In this document: positions 6,190 to 20,597 of the stretch, in pieces
Position numbering within the stretch: position 1 is the first letter of the stretch
How the letters are laid out: each line of letters opens with the position of its first letter
Source: Pirellulales bacterium
GTDB lineage: Bacteria > Planctomycetota > Planctomycetia > Pirellulales > PALSA-1355
Assembly: GCA_963733035.1 (NCBI GenBank)
Contig: CAVTBU010000006.1
Location: 256,001-320,000 of the forward strand
Direction: 5' to 3'
DNA: 64,000 nt
Notes under the pieces: generated by a model
Told to the model about the DNA's origin: nothing
Databases searched by the model: none
What the model saw: the letters and a program-made list of their open reading frames with translations, nothing else
Translations under genes and position numbers: made by a program

Positions 6190-6280
6190 GGGTCGGTAGC
6201 GGAGACGCGGGCACCATGCGCAGCATGGTCGGCGGTGGCCTGAAAAGCCGCAGACGAGGATTCGAGCGCCTCCCGACCCA
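6190..6280 (+). tRNA. tRNA-Phe(GAA)-like, degenerate, with hairpin insertion between D and anticodon arms
   Basis: GGGTCGG/CCGACCC-A acceptor; GTGGC-CTGAAAA-GCCGC anticodon arm; TTCGA loop. Confidence 0.6.
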
Positions 6281-6283
6281 CTG

Positions 6284-7264: not shown

Positions 7265-7352
7265 GGGCTCATGGTCCAAAGGGAAGACATCAGGCTGGCA
7301 GTCTGACCAGTGTCTATTGGAAATGCGGCGGGTTCAATTCCAGGTGGGTCCA
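7265..7352 (+). tRNA. tRNA-Ala(GGC)-like with insertion in variable region
   Basis: GGGCTCA/TGGGTCC-A with G3:U70; TCAGG-CTGGCAG-TCTGA; ~20-nt variable region; weak T stem. Confidence 0.6.
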
Positions 7353-7375
7353 CTCATCAATCATGGAGACGTGAA

Positions 7376-7612
7376 ATGGCCGATTCTGTGTTGATCCGGT
7401 TCGTCGGCGAAAGAGGGAAAGCACATCACTTTTTGAAGCTTGGCCCGGTAGAGGTTTGGAACCCGCCGGAGCGTGAGTTTCAGGGTGGCGACGAAATCAG
7501 GGTGCAGATTCGCCCGAATGCCTTAAACCCAGATTGCGTGGACCTGACATTTGACGATGGACAATACGCGATTGAAGTTCCGAAGGATTTCTTCGTGATC
7601 GTTGAGGAATGA
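7376..7612 (+). CDS. Hypothetical protein (78 aa)
   Basis: GGAG RBS, ATG, plausible globular sequence between tRNA genes. Confidence 0.55.
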   Translation: MADSVLIRFVGERGKAHHFLKLGPVEVWNPPEREFQGGDEIRVQIRPNALNPDCVDLTFDDGQYAIEVPKDFFVIVEE

Positions 7613-7705
7613 AATGGAAGGTAGATGCTATGGCAGCGGCGAGGGACTGCGTTAGGCTCCGAGTCACGAGGGATTGTTTTATCCGTTGTTTTGAGGAGCT
7701 CAATC

Positions 7706-8884
7706 ATGGCCACTCGACCGCAAGACTGCAGCACAACGAAGCCAGTACTGTTCCTGGGTCTCGAATTAGGGCAGCGAACCTGGAAGTTGGGGTTCACCGT
7801 GGGTTTGGGTCAGAAGCCGCGGCGACGTGAGATCGCTGCCGGTTGCATTCAGGCACTGAAACGAGAGATCAATGAGAGTAAGCAACGTTTTGGTCTGCCT
7901 GCGGATGTGGAGGTGATTAGCTGTTACGAGGCAGGCCGTGATGGGTTTTGGCTGCATCGTTGGCTGGTGTCTGAGAACGTCACAAACTTGGTGGTTGACT
8001 CGTCTAGCATTCAAGTGCCGCGGCGGCAGCGACGGGCCAAGACCGATCGTCTGGATTTGGAACAATTGTTGACCATGTTGGTGCGCTGGCATCAGGGCGA
8101 GTCGAAAGTCTGGAGCGTGGTGACGGTGCCGAGTGAAGCGGAAGAGGACGTTCGGCATTTGCATCGCGAGTTGGAAACGCTGCGGGCGGAACAGACCAGC
8201 CACATCAATCGAATCAAGAGGCTGTTGATCGGTTGCGGCGTGGTGATTGATGTGAACCGCTGGCTACCGAAACGGCTCAAAGCAATACGGCTTTGGAATG
8301 GCTCGCCGTTGACCAGCGATTTGCGGCAACGGGTATTGCGGGAGTTCGAGCGGATGCAGGTGGTCAATCGACAGGTTCGCGAGCTGGAAAAGGAGCGTGC
8401 CGCCCGGATTCGCAGCAACGAAACTGACAAGAGCGTCGCCCAGGTGCGGACGTTGTTGGGCGTGAAGGGCATCGGCGTCAACAGCGCGTGGATGTACGTG
8501 CAGGAGGTGTTTGGCTGGCGAAAGATCAAGAATCGTCGTCAATTGGGTGCGCTCGTGGGGCTGACCGGCAGTCCGTATAGCAGCGGCAACTTGGAGCGCG
8601 ATCAGGGAATTACAAAGGCTGGAAACCGCCGGATGCGAACAATGGCTGTCGAAATCGCCTGGGGATGGTTGGCATTCCAACCCGGCAGCGATCTGAGCCG
8701 TTGGTATCACGATCGATTCGCGGCCGGAAACAAGCGTCTTCGTCGCATTGGAATTGTGGCGCTGGCAAGAAAGCTGTTGGTGGAGTTGTGGAAATACCTG
8801 GAGACCGGCGTGCCGCCTTGCAACGCGGAGCTGACCGAGTGGGAGGACAAGATTCACTACACCCCTTCCCTTACGCCGGCGTAG
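7706..8884 (+). CDS. IS110-family transposase/recombinase
   Basis: GAGGAG RBS; RuvC-like GLELG / CYEAG / AKTDRLD; C-terminal GIG...YSSG...GITKAGN...VALARKL. Confidence 0.93.
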   Translation: MATRPQDCSTTKPVLFLGLELGQRTWKLGFTVGLGQKPRRREIAAGCIQALKREINESKQRFGLPADVEVISCYEAGRDGFWLHRWLVSENVTNLVVDSSSIQVPRRQRRAKTDRLDLEQLLTMLVRWHQGESKVWSVVTVPSEAEEDVRHLHRELETLRAEQTSHINRIKRLLIGCGVVIDVNRWLPKRLKAIRLWNGSPLTSDLRQRVLREFERMQVVNRQVRELEKERAARIRSNETDKSVAQVRTLLGVKGIGVNSAWMYVQEVFGWRKIKNRRQLGALVGLTGSPYSSGNLERDQGITKAGNRRMRTMAVEIAWGWLAFQPGSDLSRWYHDRFAAGNKRLRRIGIVALARKLLVELWKYLETGVPPCNAELTEWEDKIHYTPSLTPA

Positions 8885-8889
8885 CGATT

Positions 8890-9125
8890 GGATCGGTGCG
8901 AGTATGGAGCGTCTGAACGACTGACGTCGAGACTGGAAAGCGACCGAGTATCCGGCGGGTACGAGTTAGGCTCACCGAAAGGTAGATGGGATCGCTTTCA
9001 TTATGGCTTCCCGAGAGCGTCCAGGACGCATAGGGCATAGGGTGATCGGCGATGATGCCGGCACGGATAGAAGCTAGTCGTTGGCCTCGGCCACAACGAT
9101 CAGCGGAAGCCGCCAGTCATGACGT
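8890..9125 (+). ncRNA. Putative bridge RNA/seekRNA of the IS (boundaries approximate)
   Basis: Two stem-flanked internal loops carrying matches to the target (GTATCCGGC, AAGGTAG) and to the donor junction (ATAGAAG, GGCAT). Confidence 0.8.
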
Positions 9126-9336
9126 TGAACCGACAGAAGAAGTGTTTTGAGGAATGGCAGGACAAATGAATGTGCATCCCAGCACGGCTCCAGCCGCGGC
9201 GTGCGGCCAGAGCCGTCACGGAATCATTCACCCGCCCTGACCTGGCTATCCCTTGTTGGGTTGCTCTTCAGCAGAGCTCAACTCCGTTTCACCAGGCAGG
9301 CGAAAGTATATCACGACTCAACGTTGGATGAGGAGC

Positions 9337-9342
9337 TTGACA
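9337..9342 (+). promoter_or_regulatory. -35 box (TTGACA) of predicted circle-junction promoter
   Basis: 17 nt upstream of GATGCT, which forms only when the right end joins the left end. Confidence 0.6.
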
Positions 9343-9456
9343 GGTGCGCATCCATAGAAGCCGGATACGGTTGGCCGGGCCGCTCTGCTAAGGCGGTTCC
9401 CGCTCGTCGGGATGAGGGTTCGAATCCCTTGCCTTCCGCTCGTGAACGATACGTGA

Positions 9457-9529
9457 GCCTCGATGGTGAAACGGACGATCACTCCTTGCTTCTAACAAGG
9501 CATTCCGGGTTCGAATCCTGGTCGGGGCA
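9457..9529 (+). tRNA. tRNA-Arg(TCT)
   Basis: GCCTCGA/TCGGGGC-A; CCTTG-CTTCTAA-CAAGG; GGTTCGAATCC. Confidence 0.85.
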
Positions 9530-9555
9530 TTTTTGAGGAATACGACAATATATAT

Positions 9556-9630
9556 GGCGTCCGTGGTGTAGCGGTTTCTGCACGTCTGGCTGTGAACCAG
9601 AAGGTGGCGGTTCAACTCCGCTCGGACACC
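9556..9630 (+). tRNA. tRNA-His(GTG)
   Basis: G-1 and C73; TCTGG-CTGTGAA-CCAGA; GGTTCAACTCC. Confidence 0.85.
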
Positions 9631-9647
9631 CTGAAAGGAAGTGAAGC

Positions 9648-10244
9648 ATGGTCGCAAAGGTACTTGAACATCCAACGCTGGTGCTCAACCGCAACTGGCA
9701 GCCGGTGAACGTGGCCACGGTGGCCCGGGCGCTGGTGCTGTTGTGGAACGACTCGGCTCGCGTGGTGGACCCGGCGGACTACCGGCTCTACACCTGGGCC
9801 GATTGGTCGGAGCTGCGCCCGGACGAAGGCGAGCGGTTCATCCAGGCCGTGCGGCTGCGGCTGCGCGTGCCCGAGGTGATCGTGCTGGCCGAGTACGACC
9901 GGCTGCCGACCGCCGCCGTGAGCTTCAGCCGCCGCAACGTATTCAAGCGGGACCATTGGGCCTGCCAGTACTGCGGCTGCCAGCCGGGCGGAGAGGAGTT
10001 GACGATCGATCACGTGATTCCGCGGTCGCACGGTGGCACCTCGACGTGGGAGAACTGCGTGCTCGCGTGCATCGGCTGCAACAAGCGAAAGGCCGACCGC
10101 ACGCCGCACCAGGCCGGTATGCGGCTCCACAAGGTGCCGGTCCGGCCGACGTGGAAGCCGATCTACGCCCGCGACAGCGTGCGGATCGAAAGCTGGTCGA
10201 AGTTTATCAGCGAGACGTACTGGAATGTTCCGCTGGAGAAGTAG
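9648..10244 (+). CDS. HNH endonuclease (McrA-like)
   Basis: LVLN...FSRRNVFKRDHWACQYCG...LTIDHVIPRSHGG...WENCVLACIGCNKRK. Confidence 0.93.
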   Translation: MVAKVLEHPTLVLNRNWQPVNVATVARALVLLWNDSARVVDPADYRLYTWADWSELRPDEGERFIQAVRLRLRVPEVIVLAEYDRLPTAAVSFSRRNVFKRDHWACQYCGCQPGGEELTIDHVIPRSHGGTSTWENCVLACIGCNKRKADRTPHQAGMRLHKVPVRPTWKPIYARDSVRIESWSKFISETYWNVPLEK

Positions 10245-10956: not shown

Positions 10957-11135
10957 CTGATAAGGCGACAGACTGAATGATCATGTTGCAAACAATCCTG
11001 ACAGCACTGAGACGAGCTCTGTTTAGCCAGCCTGTAGCCGGCGGGGTGACGGCGAAGCCACCGTCGGCAGAGGCCGTCGCGTGTGCGGTCGTTCATTCGA
11101 CGACTTCGGTGGATCGCAGCGAAGGGAGGCTTACC

Positions 11136-11621
11136 ATGAACGCAGCCTATGACAAACTATGCGAACACCTGACCAACCAGCACATCGGCTTTTGGTCGCG
11201 CAGCGAGGACCTGTCGATCTGCACGGACTTTCGGGGCGAGGTCGGCACGTACCGGATCTTCGCTCGGGTTGACGCTGATGACAGCTTGTTCCAGGTCTTC
11301 GGTCACTCGCCGGTTCGCGTTCCGCCAGGCTCGCGGCCGGCGATCGCCGAGGCCGTGGCGCGGATCAACTGCGGTCTGAAGGTCGGCAAGTTCGAGATGG
11401 ATTGTGACGAGGGCGAGCTGCGGTTTCAGGCGGCCCAGATTCTGCCCGACGACGATCTCGACGAGCAGACGATTCAGCGTCTGATTGGTACGACCATGTC
11501 GATGTTGAACATTTACCTCCCGGCCGTCCTGTCGGTCATCTACGGCAACGAACTGCCGAAGGATGCCGTCAGGCACGCAGAGCCCGGGCGGCAGCTGTCC
11601 GACGAAAACGAGCCGCGGTGA
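11136..11621 (+). CDS. YbjN-domain (T3SS-chaperone-like fold) protein; possible upstream start 10977
   Basis: GGGAGG RBS; VPPGSRPAIAEAVARINCGLKVGKFEMDCDEGELRF pattern. Confidence 0.75.
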   Translation: MNAAYDKLCEHLTNQHIGFWSRSEDLSICTDFRGEVGTYRIFARVDADDSLFQVFGHSPVRVPPGSRPAIAEAVARINCGLKVGKFEMDCDEGELRFQAAQILPDDDLDEQTIQRLIGTTMSMLNIYLPAVLSVIYGNELPKDAVRHAEPGRQLSDENEPR

Positions 11622-11747: not shown

Positions 11748-12407
11748 GTGGCACGCACAATCGGAAGCATCACGATGACTGAACTTGAACACCTTTCATT
11801 TGAGCAACTGTTGGACGGGTGCGAAAAGGGACTCAAAAACGCGCAGTCACTGGCCGCTGAGGCAGGGCTCCTCTACGAACATAAGTACTTTGCACGGACG
11901 TACGCTCTTAGTCACCTAGCAAGAGAAGAACTCGGCAAAGTCATGATGCTATATCACGCCGCCATCGACGTCCTCGTTGGTGCGACCGTTGACTGGAAGA
12001 AGCTGAGCCGACGGTTCCGAAATCACCAAGAGAAGATCATAAACGATCAAATGTTCCAATCGCACACGATGGATCTCTTGAAGGCAGCTGAATTGCTAAC
12101 GGAGCAAGAGCAGGGTCAATTGGCGGCAGCGCAGCATCTCCAATTCACGAAACAGGCGATCGCGTATCGTAATCGCAGAAAAAACGCGTCCCTCTACGTG
12201 TCCTGGGAGGATCTTGCCTTTCAGATGCCCTCTGAGGTATTCACCGAGCAACAAGCGTATCGAATCTGGATGATTGCCAAATTTGCATGCGACGACTTCA
12301 CTCGGATAGTTGAGTCACTTAGAAAATGGGGTGCCCTGGAGCGAGAGCAGTTACTCGGAGTCTGGAAGCCTGTCATCGAACAGATACAAAGCCTCCTGAA
12401 GGAATAA
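11748..12407 (+). CDS. AbiV-family (HEPN) abortive-infection-like protein
   Basis: NAQSLAAEAGLL, YALSHLAREELGK, FRNHQEK and RRKNASLYV motifs; lower GC. Confidence 0.75.
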   Translation: MARTIGSITMTELEHLSFEQLLDGCEKGLKNAQSLAAEAGLLYEHKYFARTYALSHLAREELGKVMMLYHAAIDVLVGATVDWKKLSRRFRNHQEKIINDQMFQSHTMDLLKAAELLTEQEQGQLAAAQHLQFTKQAIAYRNRRKNASLYVSWEDLAFQMPSEVFTEQQAYRIWMIAKFACDDFTRIVESLRKWGALEREQLLGVWKPVIEQIQSLLKE

Positions 12408-15961: not shown

Positions 15962-16699
15962 TCACTCAGCCTCTTTGCCAAGGAGTTTTTTTACGAGTGC
16001 AACCGAACCATCGAGGAAAGCAAGTCGATCCTCGATGGCGATTCGTGCCAATGGGCCCGGCGAAGCGAGAATCTCGTCAATATAGAACAATCGCACTGGA
16101 CGCTCGAATATTTCGCTAAGCCTCACTTCAATTTGAGTATGTTCGTCAGAGCGACTCCACAGAACGAGATAACTCTCTGCCACAGGTTCCCCGCGAACTA
16201 CAGACAGTAGCAGGAATAGACCGTCGCGACCGCTAACAAAGTATCGGTCCACATCCTTCCAAGTAACCGGCCCACTGAAGCCGCCCCAACTCTTGCATTC
16301 ACCCGAAATCAAACCGTCCGGTGAGCGCAGCAACAAGTCGAGCTGTACACGGCCGCCCGTGGTTTGGCACTTTCGCGTCAACTCTTTAATGCCCCACGAA
16401 CGAAGCGGCTCAGGCAAGCAGGGAAAAGTGCCGCTTGTGGCCAGTCGTTCGCCCGATGGAATCAGTTCGTGTCCCTTGATGGAACGTTCGGCGACGGAGG
16501 AGAGTCCGTGATCTTCAAACCACGCTCGCACGACAGGCTCGTAAAACCCCTGGTATCCGAGTATCCAATACGCAAATGCCCGCGTCTTGGGGTTCGTTTC
16601 CATCAATGTTTGTGCGCTTGTAGCACCACCTGCAACGGGCGCTGTCGACAGCGGCTCGTTTCCAACCGATGCAGTTGCCTGCGCAACCTCAATCGGCAA
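15962..16699 (-). CDS. Hypothetical protein, possible PD-(D/E)XK nuclease
   Basis: QLDLLL...GECKSW motif; overlaps brxL stop. Confidence 0.55.
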   Translation of the reverse strand: MPIEVAQATASVGNEPLSTAPVAGGATSAQTLMETNPKTRAFAYWILGYQGFYEPVVRAWFEDHGLSSVAERSIKGHELIPSGERLATSGTFPCLPEPLRSWGIKELTRKCQTTGGRVQLDLLLRSPDGLISGECKSWGGFSGPVTWKDVDRYFVSGRDGLFLLLSVVRGEPVAESYLVLWSRSDEHTQIEVRLSEIFERPVRLFYIDEILASPGPLARIAIEDRLAFLDGSVALVKKLLGKEAE

Positions 16700-18240
16700 T
16701 TGCTTTAATTAAGGCTTCCCGTGCATCACCGTAAAACACAATCGTCACTTTCGTCGCCAAATCGTCAGACAGTTCAAAGAGCTGTTTTCGCGATGAAATT
16801 GGCATGAGGACAACGGACGCGCCTTTCTCGACCGCCAATTCGACGACATCAATCGCATTGTGCACCGGATCAATTGACCCACCGAGATTCAATCCCCCTA
16901 CAACAACCAAGCCGCCGCGTAGGCTGCGGTTTATCAGTGACGAACAGAGGCCCAAGAGGGCGGCCATGCCTAGCGACCTTCCGCCCTTGCTGGCGTCAAA
17001 CGCCCGCAGCTGAATTGAAAACTCGTGCTCCCGCGGGTTGCGGTCACCGACAAGTTGAGACGGCTGAGAATACAAATTGGCTTCCGCGTACTTCACTGAC
17101 TCAGAGAACGACGGAGGAGCCGGTCGATTGAGAATTCGCGTCCCATTGCCTGGACCTTCAGAAACTTCGATGCGATACAGCCCCGAACCTTCGTCCTGGC
17201 CGCCGGGGCTAATCGCCCATACTTGTCCAGGCGGCAATGGATCGCGGCCGATATGGTCCTCGCTCTGCAATTCCGGGGTGACGACGAACTGTTCGATGCC
17301 GTCGCGGCCAAGCGCGTAACTAAACTGCGTGTTTCGGAACTCGGCACTGCCGATTCGCTTCTGTTGCTCCTTGACGCGTCGGCGAGATTCCAATGCCAGA
17401 CGCACTGCCCATTCAAGGTCTTTGTCAGACACGTCTTCGTCCGGGCTAGGATGAATGAGCTTGAGTAGGCCATTGATTGTTTTGTTGGCTGCGTTTTGAT
17501 CCCGACCACTCAATGCACCTCCGAACGTTACTCTTCCCTGCAGGGTCGATAGCCGATTGTGGCTTCTTAGGCGGGTCCAACACTCGCTCAGGAAATCGGA
17601 TACCAGCCCAAAATGGTTCGTCTTTGTTTGTTCGGAGACTTTCGGCACGTCCCAGCCTGGAAGGTAACCGTGAATTCGGTCCATGAGTGCGGTGTCATCT
17701 CGCATTTCGGGCGGCATCGGACCGAATAGGTGCCCGACTCGTTGCTGATGTGCCACATCGACTTCAAAATTCCCGACCATTACGATACTGCCGTAAGCCC
17801 TAATGCTTTCCTTTCCGCGGCTGAATTCACCGGACTCCATGTACCCTTTCATGATGTTGACGCCGTCCTTTTGATCGAAGGACACGCCGGACACCTCGTC
17901 GAAACACACCACATCATACTGACACACCAAGCCGCGCTGCCCCGTGCTGTTATTCACAAACATGCGGGCCACCGTCGCTTTGCCGCCGGAAACCAGGTGA
18001 GCGTACGGCGATATTTGCTGATATAAATGGCTCTTGCCAGTTCCACGCGGACCGAGTTCAACCAGGTTGTAGTTATTCTCAACAAAGGGAACCATGCGCA
18101 GGAGGAGGGCATCCATATTCCGAGGGCTGAGCGACTGCGGCTCCAGCCCGATGCTCCGAATCAAGAACTGCTTCCATTCATCGGTGGTAAAACGTTGACG
18201 CCCTTCATAGAGGCTGTCCAGCACATCCCGTTTCGAGGCA
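16689..18240 (-). pseudogene. brxL: BrxL-like AAA+/Lon-domain protein, N-terminally truncated
   Basis: LLRMVPFVENNYNLVELGPRGTGKSH, DVVCFDEV, MKGYMESGEFSRG, DRIHGYLPGW, C-terminal Lon-like domain; homology stops near 18240. Confidence 0.8.
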
Positions 18241-20597
18241 AGTCTGCCTGATGCCAAGAAGTCAGGCACGGGCTGGTCGGCCTGCTGTCCGGCCCACGAC
18301 GATCGGCAGCCCAGCCTGTCGATCGCCGAGGGGGAGGACGGCCGGGTCTTGCTCAAGTGTCACGCCGGTTGCCCAGTCGATGCAATCTGTGCGGCGCTCG
18401 GCCTCAAGCCGACAGACCTGTTTGCAGTGTCAACGTCAACGGTATTGCACCCAGCCCGGGAAAAACACCAATACCGTGGACAGGCAAACGGCAAAACGAT
18501 GGGCAACTCGTTCGCCACCGCTGACGAGGCAATCCACGAGCTCGAGCGGCGGCATGGCCCTTCCACGGCCCGATGGACCTACCGCGATGACAGCGGAGTT
18601 GTGGTCGGCGTGGTCGTTCGATGGGACTTGCCGGACGGCAGCAAGAAGATTCGGCCAGTCAGCCTGCATGGCGACCACTGGCGAATTGCGGGAATGTCCA
18701 CGCCTCGGCCGTTGTACCGCCCGGAAGACCTGCGTGACGCGAAGCGGGTCTACGTCTGCGAGGGCGAGAAGGCCGTGGAAGCGGCCCGATCGCTCGGACT
18801 GATCGCGACCACTTCGGCGCATGGATCGAAGTCGTCGGACAAGACCGATTGGAGTCCGCTCGCCGGGAGGGAGGTCGTGCTTCTGCCCGACAACGATCCG
18901 GCTGGACTTGAGTATGCAGACGCAGTCGTCGGTCTGTTGGAGCGACTCAAGCCTCCTCCGACGATCAAGGTGGTAGAGCTGCCTGACCTGCCGCAGAAGG
19001 GCGACATCGTGGAGTGGATCGAATCACATGGCGACGCAGCGGAGCCCGAGTCAATGCGAGACGAACTGGAGCAACTGGCCGACCAAGCAGATTTTGTTCA
19101 GCGCAATGTTCCGGCGAAATCAGGCGCCCGCGTCGTGAGCTTCACTCCGTTTCCGACGGAGGTGTTGCCCGAACCGATTCGAAGCTTTGTGCTTGTTGCA
19201 GCAAGGGCAATCTGCTGTGACGCGTCGTACATCGTTCTCCCGTTGTTGGCCGTGCTGGCGTCGGCGATTGGCAACACGCGCCGATTGACACTCAAGCCTG
19301 GGTGGAACGCGCCAGCAATCATCTGGACAGCCATCGTGGGCGAGAGCGGCACGGCCAAGACGCCGGCGTTTTCGCTCGTGATGCGGCCCATCAAGAATCG
19401 CCAGGCGAAGGCGCTCAAGCAATACGAAGCGGACATGCAGCAGTACCAGACTGACCTGGCGAACTATGACAAGGCGTTGACCGTCTGGAAACGGGATAAG
19501 AACACAACGGATCCGCCGCCGGACAAGCCGCATGAGCCACAGCCCAGACGGTGCATGGTCGGCGACACAACCGTCGAAGCACTCGCCCCGATTCTCAAGG
19601 CAAACTGGTGCGGCGTGCTGGTGGCCCGAGATGAGTTGGCCGGCTGGATTGGCTCGTTCGATCGATACGCCAGCGGCAAGGGCGGTGCAGACTCCCGCAT
19701 TGGTTGAGCATGTTCAATGGCGAGAACATCTCCGTGGATCGCAAGACGGGCATCCCCAAAACCATTTTCGTTCCGCTGGCCTCCGTTTGTGTGACCGGCG
19801 GCATTCAGCCGGCCATTCTGCATCGGGCCCTGGGAACTCAGCACAGAGAGTCTGGTCTGGCGGCGCGTCTGCTCGTGTGTTGCCCTCCGCGCAAGGCCAA
19901 GAAGTGGACCGATGCGGGCATCGACCCATCCATGGAAGCACAGCTTGCCATGCTGCTGGATCGTCTGTTTGAGCTCGAGCCCAGGTTCGACGAGGACGAC
20001 GAGCCGATGCCGGTCCTGGTTCGACTGTCGAAGGAAGCGCATGAGGAGTGGAAGGCCTACTACGATGCCCATGCGCATGAGCAGGTCGATTTGACCGGCG
20101 ATCTGTCCGCAGCGTGGTCAAAGCTCGAGGAATATGCCGCTCGGCTGGCGCTCGTGGTCCATTTGGTCCGCTGGGCCGCCGATGACCCAACGCTGGAGTC
20201 AGAACATGTCGTCGACGTCGACAGCGTTCGAGCGGGCGTCACGATGACCCAGTGGTTCAAGCACGAAGTTCGACGTGTCTATGCGCTGCTGTGCGAGACG
20301 GACGAGGAGCGAGACGAGCGCCGGCTCGTCGAGTGGATCGATCGCAAAGGCGGAGCGGTCACAGCTCGCGAGGCGCACATGGGCTGCCGCTGGCTTCGGG
20401 AGGCGGGCTTGGCCGAAGCTGCACTGAATGCGCTGGTGCAATCTGGGCAGGGCACCTGGGAACCATCGCCTCGCGGAGCTCGTGGCCAACCGACGCGCCG
20501 ATTCCGACTGACAACAGCGTCAACCGTCAACGGTAATTGTCCCGCACCCGACGAAAAGACGAATACCGTTGACGTTGACGACGCAGACGCAGCGTAG
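18241..20597 (+). CDS. Primase (Zn-finger + TOPRIM)/DUF3987 helicase-like replication protein; no start codon, frameshift near 19695
   Basis: CCPAHDD...KCHAGC, VCEGEKA, LPDND, VGESGTAKT, RDELAGW, GGIQP, SGLAARLL. Confidence 0.8.

Follow-up and report, generated by a model that had tools for sequence, protein, structure and literature searches.

How a serine tRNA gene comes to lie in two pieces within a tRNA gene array, and whether its interruption is a reversible arrangement that serves the host, is the question raised by a locus of a Pirellulales bacterium (assembly GCA_963733035.1, 6.65 Mb in 10 contigs). The window analysed here is the whole stretch of 64,000 nucleotides at positions 256,001 to 320,000 of contig CAVTBU010000006.1 (C6:256001-320000); coordinates without a contig prefix refer to this window. 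The first nine nucleotides of a tRNA-Ser(GCU) gene, GGAAGGTAG, are located at 7616-7624 and the remainder of the gene at 9361-9438, the two parts being separated by an insertion sequence of 1736 bp (7625-9360). We consider it highly probable that an RNA-guided element of the IS1111 type entered an accessory tRNA-Ser(GCU) gene of the array in a site-specific manner, between its positions 9 and 10. The first-pass annotation had recognised the split after nucleotide 9 by an IS110-family element, which is confirmed by the sequence and by an NCBIfam match. It had also proposed that the element acts as a reversible DNA-level switch or 'DNA intron' for this tRNA; this is possible in principle, though we find no support for it, the gene being redundant and its sister sites decayed.

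The left edge of the insertion reads ...GAAAT GGAAGGTAG followed by ATGCTATGGCAGC... (7616-7637), the insert beginning with ATGCTATGG. The right edge reads ...GCATCCATAGAAG followed by CCGGATACGGTTGG... around 9360/9361, where the insert ends with CCATAGAAG and CCGGATACGG... follows. That tRNA scanners overlook such a gene had been anticipated and is indeed the case: ARAGORN called 15 tRNA genes in the intact window, none of them between 7353 and 9457, and the sole Rfam match at the split tRNA (E up to 1) was sub-threshold and partial (9357-9436, tRNA-Sec model, 25 bits, E 0.17). Once 7625-9360 is deleted in silico, ARAGORN calls an 88-nt tRNA-Ser(gct), a cloverleaf with a 7-bp acceptor stem, GCU anticodon, long variable arm and G73, so that excision would restore the full type-II tRNA-Ser as had been claimed. 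Cuts at 7623-9358 or 7624-9359 yield the same excised product as 7625-9360; the cut point is ambiguous by 2 nt because AG is present at both junctions.

The uninterrupted gene is found in related genomes. Forty relatives and the source genome itself (41 genomes) were searched with 9361-9640, and 11 foreign loci with long matches were fetched. All 11 contain an uninterrupted tRNA-Ser(gct) at the corresponding place of the tRNA array, with tRNA-Ala(ggc) on one side and tRNA-Arg(tct) or tRNA-His on the other, and in eight of them it stands directly between tRNA-Ala(ggc) and tRNA-Arg(tct); the gene order around it varies in loci L084, L089 and L090, and L091 ends just upstream. The first 20 nt of the orthologue are identical to those of the in silico join at four loci, differ at one position at four and at two positions at two, and show seven differences in L088. 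Positions 1-9 of the split tRNA are identical to those of the intact orthologues at eight of the 11 loci, so the 5' acceptor strand assigned to the gene in the first-pass annotation stands up to the comparison with relatives that was recommended there. The insertion sequence itself is present in none of the 40 related genomes searched, where merely four partial matches were obtained. U8 is the norm in tRNA; the split tRNA-Ser carries A8 instead, as do all 11 array orthologues, and this conservation suggests that A8 may be a lineage trait of the array tRNA-Ser. The near-identical intact orthologue of L081 reaches 36.3 bits on the Rfam tRNA-Sec model (cut-off 47), with a still lower match to the general tRNA model, and the array tRNA-Ser is therefore an atypical tRNA.

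By every defining feature tested, the inserted element is, judged from its sequence, of the IS1111 type. Both 6-bp subterminal inverted repeats stand 3 nt from an end as drawn and have longer equivalents in relatives. The family ends deduced from multi-copy relatives, AT(G/A)CTATG after an AG on the left and CATAGA-AG on the right, are exactly the ends found here. AG occurs at both ends in all nine relatives with junctions listed, and the core repeat is present here without a long target duplication. The circle junction predicted from these ends, CCATAGAAG joined to ATGCTATGG, fits the family-wide ends ...CATAGAAG and AT(G/A)CTATG. Insertion is site-specific in that one tRNA position is used at two full copies and one relic, which are described below. 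The transposase matches NCBIfam NF033542 ('IS110 family RNA-guided transposase') with 169.1 bits (cut-off 140) over positions 2-342 of 343 and Pfam Transposase_20 above the cut-off (E 7.3e-12), while Pfam DEDD_Tnp_IS110 is matched with 22.8 bits, below the cut-off of 29. With the solved chains of IS621 and ISCro4 it shares only weak similarity, none of it outside the C-terminal domain (E 2.6e-4 and 1.2e-4), and its nearest relatives in contigs from one genome per species are at most 58% identical and belong to Gemmatimonadota, Burkholderiales, Acidobacteriota and a Pirellulales metagenome-assembled genome. The transposase gene is preceded by 81 nt (7625-7705) and followed by 476 nt (8885-9360) of non-coding DNA, and Rfam matches no family inside the insertion sequence at E up to 1. 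A scan of the linear form for promoters and terminators gave no promoter-like site, and terminator-like sites were no more frequent than in shuffled sequences. Relatives carry TTGACA, 17 nt and TACTAT across their joined ends; the corresponding TTGACA-19 nt-TGCTAT of the present element would be a candidate junction promoter in a circle.

The specificity of the insertion presumably resides in the non-coding region 3' of the transposase gene. The RNA predicted from it would carry two short guides, one for the top strand of tRNA positions 9-17 and one for the bottom strand of positions 3-9, which would overlap at the AG core as the place of strand exchange. The guides stand in the order of seekRNAs (8948-8956, then 8979-8985): the complement of the top strand lies first, and the two matches overlap at tRNA position 9. 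Guide 1 is located about 119 nt upstream of ATAGAAG, and directly 3' of guide 2 follows ATGG, which matches the left end of the element over three bases (ATG). Since both guides match tRNA-Ser(GCU), the element appears to be programmed for this tRNA gene. We assume that the RNA is made and used by the element, and that read-through from the array contributes to the expression of the element, which is plausible because element and array are co-oriented.

Support for this assignment comes from the relatives of the element. In all six distinct relatives with defined ends, an 8-9-nt reverse complement of the element's own right flank lies 111-120 nt upstream of ATAGAAG. Among 55 unique elements (39 distinct right flanks), guide 1 reaches at least 8/9 matches to its own flank in 40 cases, compared with 35 of 2526 cross-pairs. 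An alignment of 56 sequences yields an outer stem, an internal loop that contains both guides and an inner hairpin, with compensatory changes in 18 of 23 pairs; the outer stem is also seen in the single-sequence fold. Farther downstream, about 55 of 79 loci have non-coding regions that match the block at 9027-9077 (50 nt) with an identity of 75-96%, mostly 77-87%, although the encoded proteins do not exceed 58% identity; within the block, CGGATAGAA and the last G are invariant in alignment A1. At guide 2 the present element is one of three that match at 5/5 variable positions. The exact 15-nt target is no longer found in the genome, the nearest sequence, with one mismatch, being located at C7:549301. 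As a separate matter, targeting of tRNA genes was considered as a trait of the family and rejected, because among 60 loci of relatives a tRNA in the vicinity was found just once, namely a tRNA-Pro in L050 at a distance of about 1.3 kb.

The genome has 96 predicted tRNA genes, of which 44 are co-oriented at C6:241456-268483, with a partial internal duplication. Twenty-seven of these lie within C6:241456-245991 (4.5 kb), and the array is supernumerary to a dispersed housekeeping set. It falls within the definition of a long tRNA array (L-array) given in an excerpt of PMC4758250, namely at least 20 tRNA genes at a density of at least two per kb. In relatives (L081, L083, L085, L087 and L088), an array with the same gene order is compact, with 17-20 tRNA genes in 2.5-3.3 kb; this compact array is conserved across several families of the order, and the version of the source genome is duplicated and loosened by inserts.

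A second copy of the element at C6:246363-248098 differs by one mismatch in 1736 and follows the GGAAGGTAG of a paralogous tRNA-Ser(gct). Its upstream flank bears no relation to that of the copy at 7625-9360 as far as tRNA position 1, and downstream identity extends over 66 nt. The tRNA at this site (C6:248099-248200) has, in place of the 3' strand of the T arm, about 25 nt folding into an 8-bp hairpin; the 3' strand of the acceptor is kept, and ARAGORN does not call this tRNA even after in silico excision. A third, decayed site is present on the minus strand at C5:~2680581-2680644. Here, the left junction recurs over 20 identical nt, made up of one upstream base, tRNA nt 1-9 and the first bases of the element; a diverged anticodon arm and variable arm follow at once, and the element body, the D arm and the T arm are missing. 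An intact housekeeping tRNA-Ser(gct), whose 5' region differs from that of the array copy, is located at C5:700967-701054, and because of it the insertion inactivates a redundant gene. Both tRNA-Ser paralogues of the array would thus have been struck by the element, with a decayed site as the trace of a third insertion, and a redundant tRNA gene may offer the element a safe landing place on an array that itself spreads between genomes.

The two full copies could alternatively descend from one old insertion that was copied along with an array segment and kept alike by gene conversion, which would alter the history of the locus and not the identity of the element. The array is partly duplicated, and the tract of identity shared by the two copies (1811 bp, 99.945%) begins exactly at tRNA position 1 and takes in the 66 nt of downstream tRNA, as a copied segment might. 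However, other duplicated parts of the array are only 78-98% identical and their spacers do not align, as against one mismatch in 1736 within the element, so that the element copies are much younger than the array duplication. The upstream flanks, moreover, are unrelated up to tRNA position 1, and the same junction recurs in other contexts, both in metagenome contigs and on C5. We therefore regard a copied insertion as very improbable and favour two separate targeted insertions.

Several observations weigh against a guided and targeted insertion by an active element. Gene conversion could have produced the two copies, and their tRNA flanks, identical over 9/9 and 66/66 nt, fit either history. 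Guide 1 stays below 8/9 in 15 of the 55 elements. Guide 2 covaries weakly, with 26 of 48 own pairs and 302 of 2254 cross pairs at three or more of the five variable positions. The single-sequence fold of the non-coding region barely beats shuffled sequences (z -1.72, 12 of 200 as good). A donor-side guide is not cleanly readable from the region, in which just the 7-nt ATAGAAG and a 4-nt covarying G(C/T)AT are seen. Finally, IS621 has an aspartate at the first catalytic acidic position, and in the N-terminus of the present transposase (7706-7800) this DEDD position is a glutamate (L-E-L-G), as in 9 of 10 aligned clade members; the transposase is assumed to be active.

Independent sequence data for the junctions were obtained from assembled Logan contigs of soil metagenomes, a type of contig that drops rare variants. 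They bear on the suspicion that the assembly has misplaced a repeat into the tRNA gene, a suspicion favoured by two near-identical repeats 17 kb apart in one assembly and by a genome of 10 contigs. In run X1, the best holder of the locus, short-read contigs of independent origin extend across the right junction (9260-9388) without any difference and, at the second copy, across the left one. Another study contributes, in run X2, a 1812-nt contig that extends over 7616-9427 with 153 differences; it represents a diverged copy with both of its junctions, inserted at the same tRNA position. The junctions also follow the AG-core rule of the family, and the guides match the flanks. An assembly artefact is, in our view, extremely improbable. 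A contig of run X3 covers 7616-8258 with about 90% identity and has a third upstream flank; altogether, contigs from two studies contain copies that are about 90-91% identical, at the same tRNA position and with other flanks. When the 18-nt left junction was searched in Joint Genome Institute (JGI) metagenome contigs, seven exact matches were obtained, none of which resembles the element or its transposase, and these were rejected as chance.

The same contigs speak to the question of a switch, in which precise excision and re-insertion would alternately activate and silence the array tRNA-Ser(GCU), and the host would benefit. A 189-nt contig of run X3 covers 7474-7624 with one difference and continues with a G and then with 9362 onward, which is this very locus without the element. 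Occupied and empty contigs together indicate that the insertion is polymorphic in nature. The empty contig is no proof of excision, since it comes from another sample and differs by a base: unoccupied tRNA-Ser alleles in contigs of runs X3 and X4, that of X4 from a different relative, have G instead of C at tRNA position 10, which adjoins the core and would mismatch the 9-nt guide. Most simply, the X3 contig would represent an allele that was never occupied. The remaining contig joints belong to relatives in which tRNA-Ala and tRNA-Ser are adjacent, and no circle joint and no empty site of the same strain was among the joints listed for the assembled contigs searched. IS492 in the eps locus of Pseudoalteromonas atlantica is said to bring about phase variation through precise excision, with a selectable phenotype and measured switching. 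Like IS492, the element is of the IS110 family and its precise removal, here in silico and scarless, restores the interrupted gene; unlike in IS492, the interrupted gene is redundant with the intact copy at C5:700967-701054, which leaves no selectable phenotype of the IS492 kind, and no switching is seen in the assembled contigs. At two of the three sites we find decay and not maintenance, namely a tRNA of the second copy that is broken beyond the element and the relic on C5.

What excerpts of the experimental literature say of excision points in both directions. For IS621, post-excision junctions were detected by PCR in E. coli; excision required read-through transcription, which the co-orientation of the present element with the array might provide, and was less efficient than insertion (PMC13626964). 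For ISEc11, a member of the IS1111 group, circles were detected and the regenerated target was not (PMC11187229). A reversible switch is accordingly very improbable in our judgement, and the locus looks like ordinary targeted parasitism of a dispensable gene, not like a proven on/off switch. We would give no more than an outside chance to a more elaborate scenario, in which the element has specialised on tRNA arrays that spread horizontally. The array would provide a conserved, dispensable landing pad and, by read-through from a stress-inducible array operon, expression of transposase and guide RNA; excision and insertion would follow induction of the array and toggle tRNA-Ser(GCU), with the C10-to-G change as an escape variant of the host.

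Preferring a targeted insertion, we can place the element among known systems. As described for the IS1111 group in excerpts of PMC11187229 and PMC11208160, it combines an IS110-family transposase with subterminal inverted repeats and a long non-coding region 3' of the transposase gene. The seekRNA elements of this group include ISEc11, ISKpn4, ISPa11 and ISPst6, and in their seekRNAs the top-strand complement comes first and the two matches overlap in the target (Siddiquee et al. 2024, PMC11187229, excerpt). Order and overlap of the guides predicted here are the same, and the elements also resemble each other in what may be called natural re-programming, relatives sharing the scaffold and differing in guides and flanks. 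Unlike ISEc11-type elements, the present one has an extra segment of about 170 nt in its right non-coding region and a target within the body of a tRNA gene (acceptor/D-arm region). With the bridge RNA system of IS621 it shares, by prediction, a two-loop RNA with a guide for each strand at a 2-nt core (Durrant et al. 2024, PMC11208160; Hiraizumi et al. 2026, PMC13626964; excerpts of both) and a promoter expected across the joined ends. The RNA of IS621 is located upstream in the left end and its core is CT, whereas the predicted RNA of the present element is located downstream and the core is AG. A further resemblance to IS621 is a guide extension that matches the post-recombination junction: the left junction of the present element is given by AAGGTAG together with ATG, much like the 'handshake' guides named in PMC13626964 (excerpt).

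The targets of IS110 and IS1111 elements cited in the available text of the two 2024 papers are repetitive extragenic palindromic (REP) sequences, attC sites and Tn21 ends (PMC11187229, PMC11208160); they parallel the RNA-guided insertion into a conserved but dispensable gene proposed here. The word 'tRNA' does not occur in the available text of PMC11187229 and appears solely as an analogy in that of PMC11208160. Literature searches, which did not extend to the supplements of these papers with their possible lists of predicted targets, brought up no IS110/IS1111 element directed at a tRNA gene body. The new aspect is this target; otherwise the element belongs to the known IS1111 type. The array, for its part, resembles long tRNA arrays (2016, PMC4758250; Santamaria-Gomez et al. 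2021, PMC8421152) in its co-oriented genes, which are supernumerary to the housekeeping set. It also includes a gene for an HNH endonuclease, such as has been described beside the Anabaena array. Unlike the arrays described, it is partly duplicated and interrupted by an insertion sequence and open reading frames; in the text of PMC4758250 and PMC8421152 available to us, neither insertion sequences nor transposases are mentioned.

The locus thus offers a clear example from nature of an RNA-guided element of the IS1111 type that has been re-programmed to target a tRNA gene body, and insertion sequences join the known parasites of long tRNA arrays. Since scanners silently lose split tRNA genes, gene counts and anticodon inventories of such arrays can be wrong. 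A defined guide-target pair (9 + 7 nt around the AG core) together with a transposase far from those of IS621 and ISEc11 is also a potential recombination tool. No long-standing question is opened by the finding. The coordinates of the features are collected in Table 1.

Table 1 Features of the interrupted tRNA-Ser(GCU) gene and of the inserted element (window coordinates).
Feature	Position	Strand	Evidence or remark
tRNA-Ser(GCU) 5' fragment, positions 1-9 (acceptor strand GGAAGGT + A8 + G9)	7616-7624	+	Sequence; ARAGORN on the join
AG core dinucleotide, left copy	7623-7624	+	Right copy at 9359-9360
IS1111-type (IS110 family) insertion sequence, 1736 bp	7625-9360	+	Second copy; ends match family consensus
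Left subterminal inverted repeat CTATGG	7628-7633	+	Pairs with CCATAG at 9352-9357
Transposase gene, 392 aa	7706-8884	+	NCBIfam NF033542; Pfam Transposase_20; full-length alignment with relatives
Target-binding stem, internal loop and hairpin of predicted seekRNA (bridge-RNA-like) region	8937-8998	+	Consensus structure of 56 sequences
Predicted guide 1, GTATCCGGC, reverse complement of tRNA positions 9-17 (core G + CCGGATAC)	8948-8956	+	Covaries with right flank
Predicted guide 2, AAGGTAG, same sense as tRNA positions 3-9	8979-8985	+	Would pair with bottom strand
Conserved block, putative donor-binding part	9027-9077	+	Holds ATAGAAG (9067-9073), the right-end sequence of the element
Extra segment of about 170 nt in right non-coding region, unexplained passenger	9140-9320	+	Common to transposase-less loci of other genomes
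TTGACA in right end	9337-9342	+	In a circle, 19 nt upstream of TGCTAT (7626-7631)
tRNA-Ser(GCU) 3' part: D arm, GCT anticodon arm, long variable arm, T arm, acceptor 3' strand, G73	9361-9438	+

The extra segment at 9140-9320 has matches of 77-84% in three genomes of the same family or order (three times in G008, and in G017 and G025). No transposase lies beside these matches in G008, G017 and G025, and no Rfam match was obtained for the segment, which may represent a small nested repeat or else an RNA carried as a passenger.

Some further observations concern the surroundings of the split gene. The tRNA-Ala(ggc) at 7265-7353 and the tRNA-Arg(tct) at C6:250180-250269 are unusually long with 89 and 90 nt, their paralogues having 72 and 73 nt; each contains about 17 extra nt at the position of the variable loop, which form small hairpins, much like an acquired long variable arm. 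The tRNA-Cys at 6190-6281 is likewise long (92 nt). Protein genes are interspersed among the array tRNAs at 9648-10244, 10977-11621 and 11748-12407 and code for an HNH endonuclease, a YbjN-like protein and an AbiV-type HEPN protein (abortive-infection family). Farther downstream follow genes for an SPFH protein and a BrxL-like ATPase (16689-18356, minus strand) and a DUF3987 gene that is present as two open reading frames (18349-20597).

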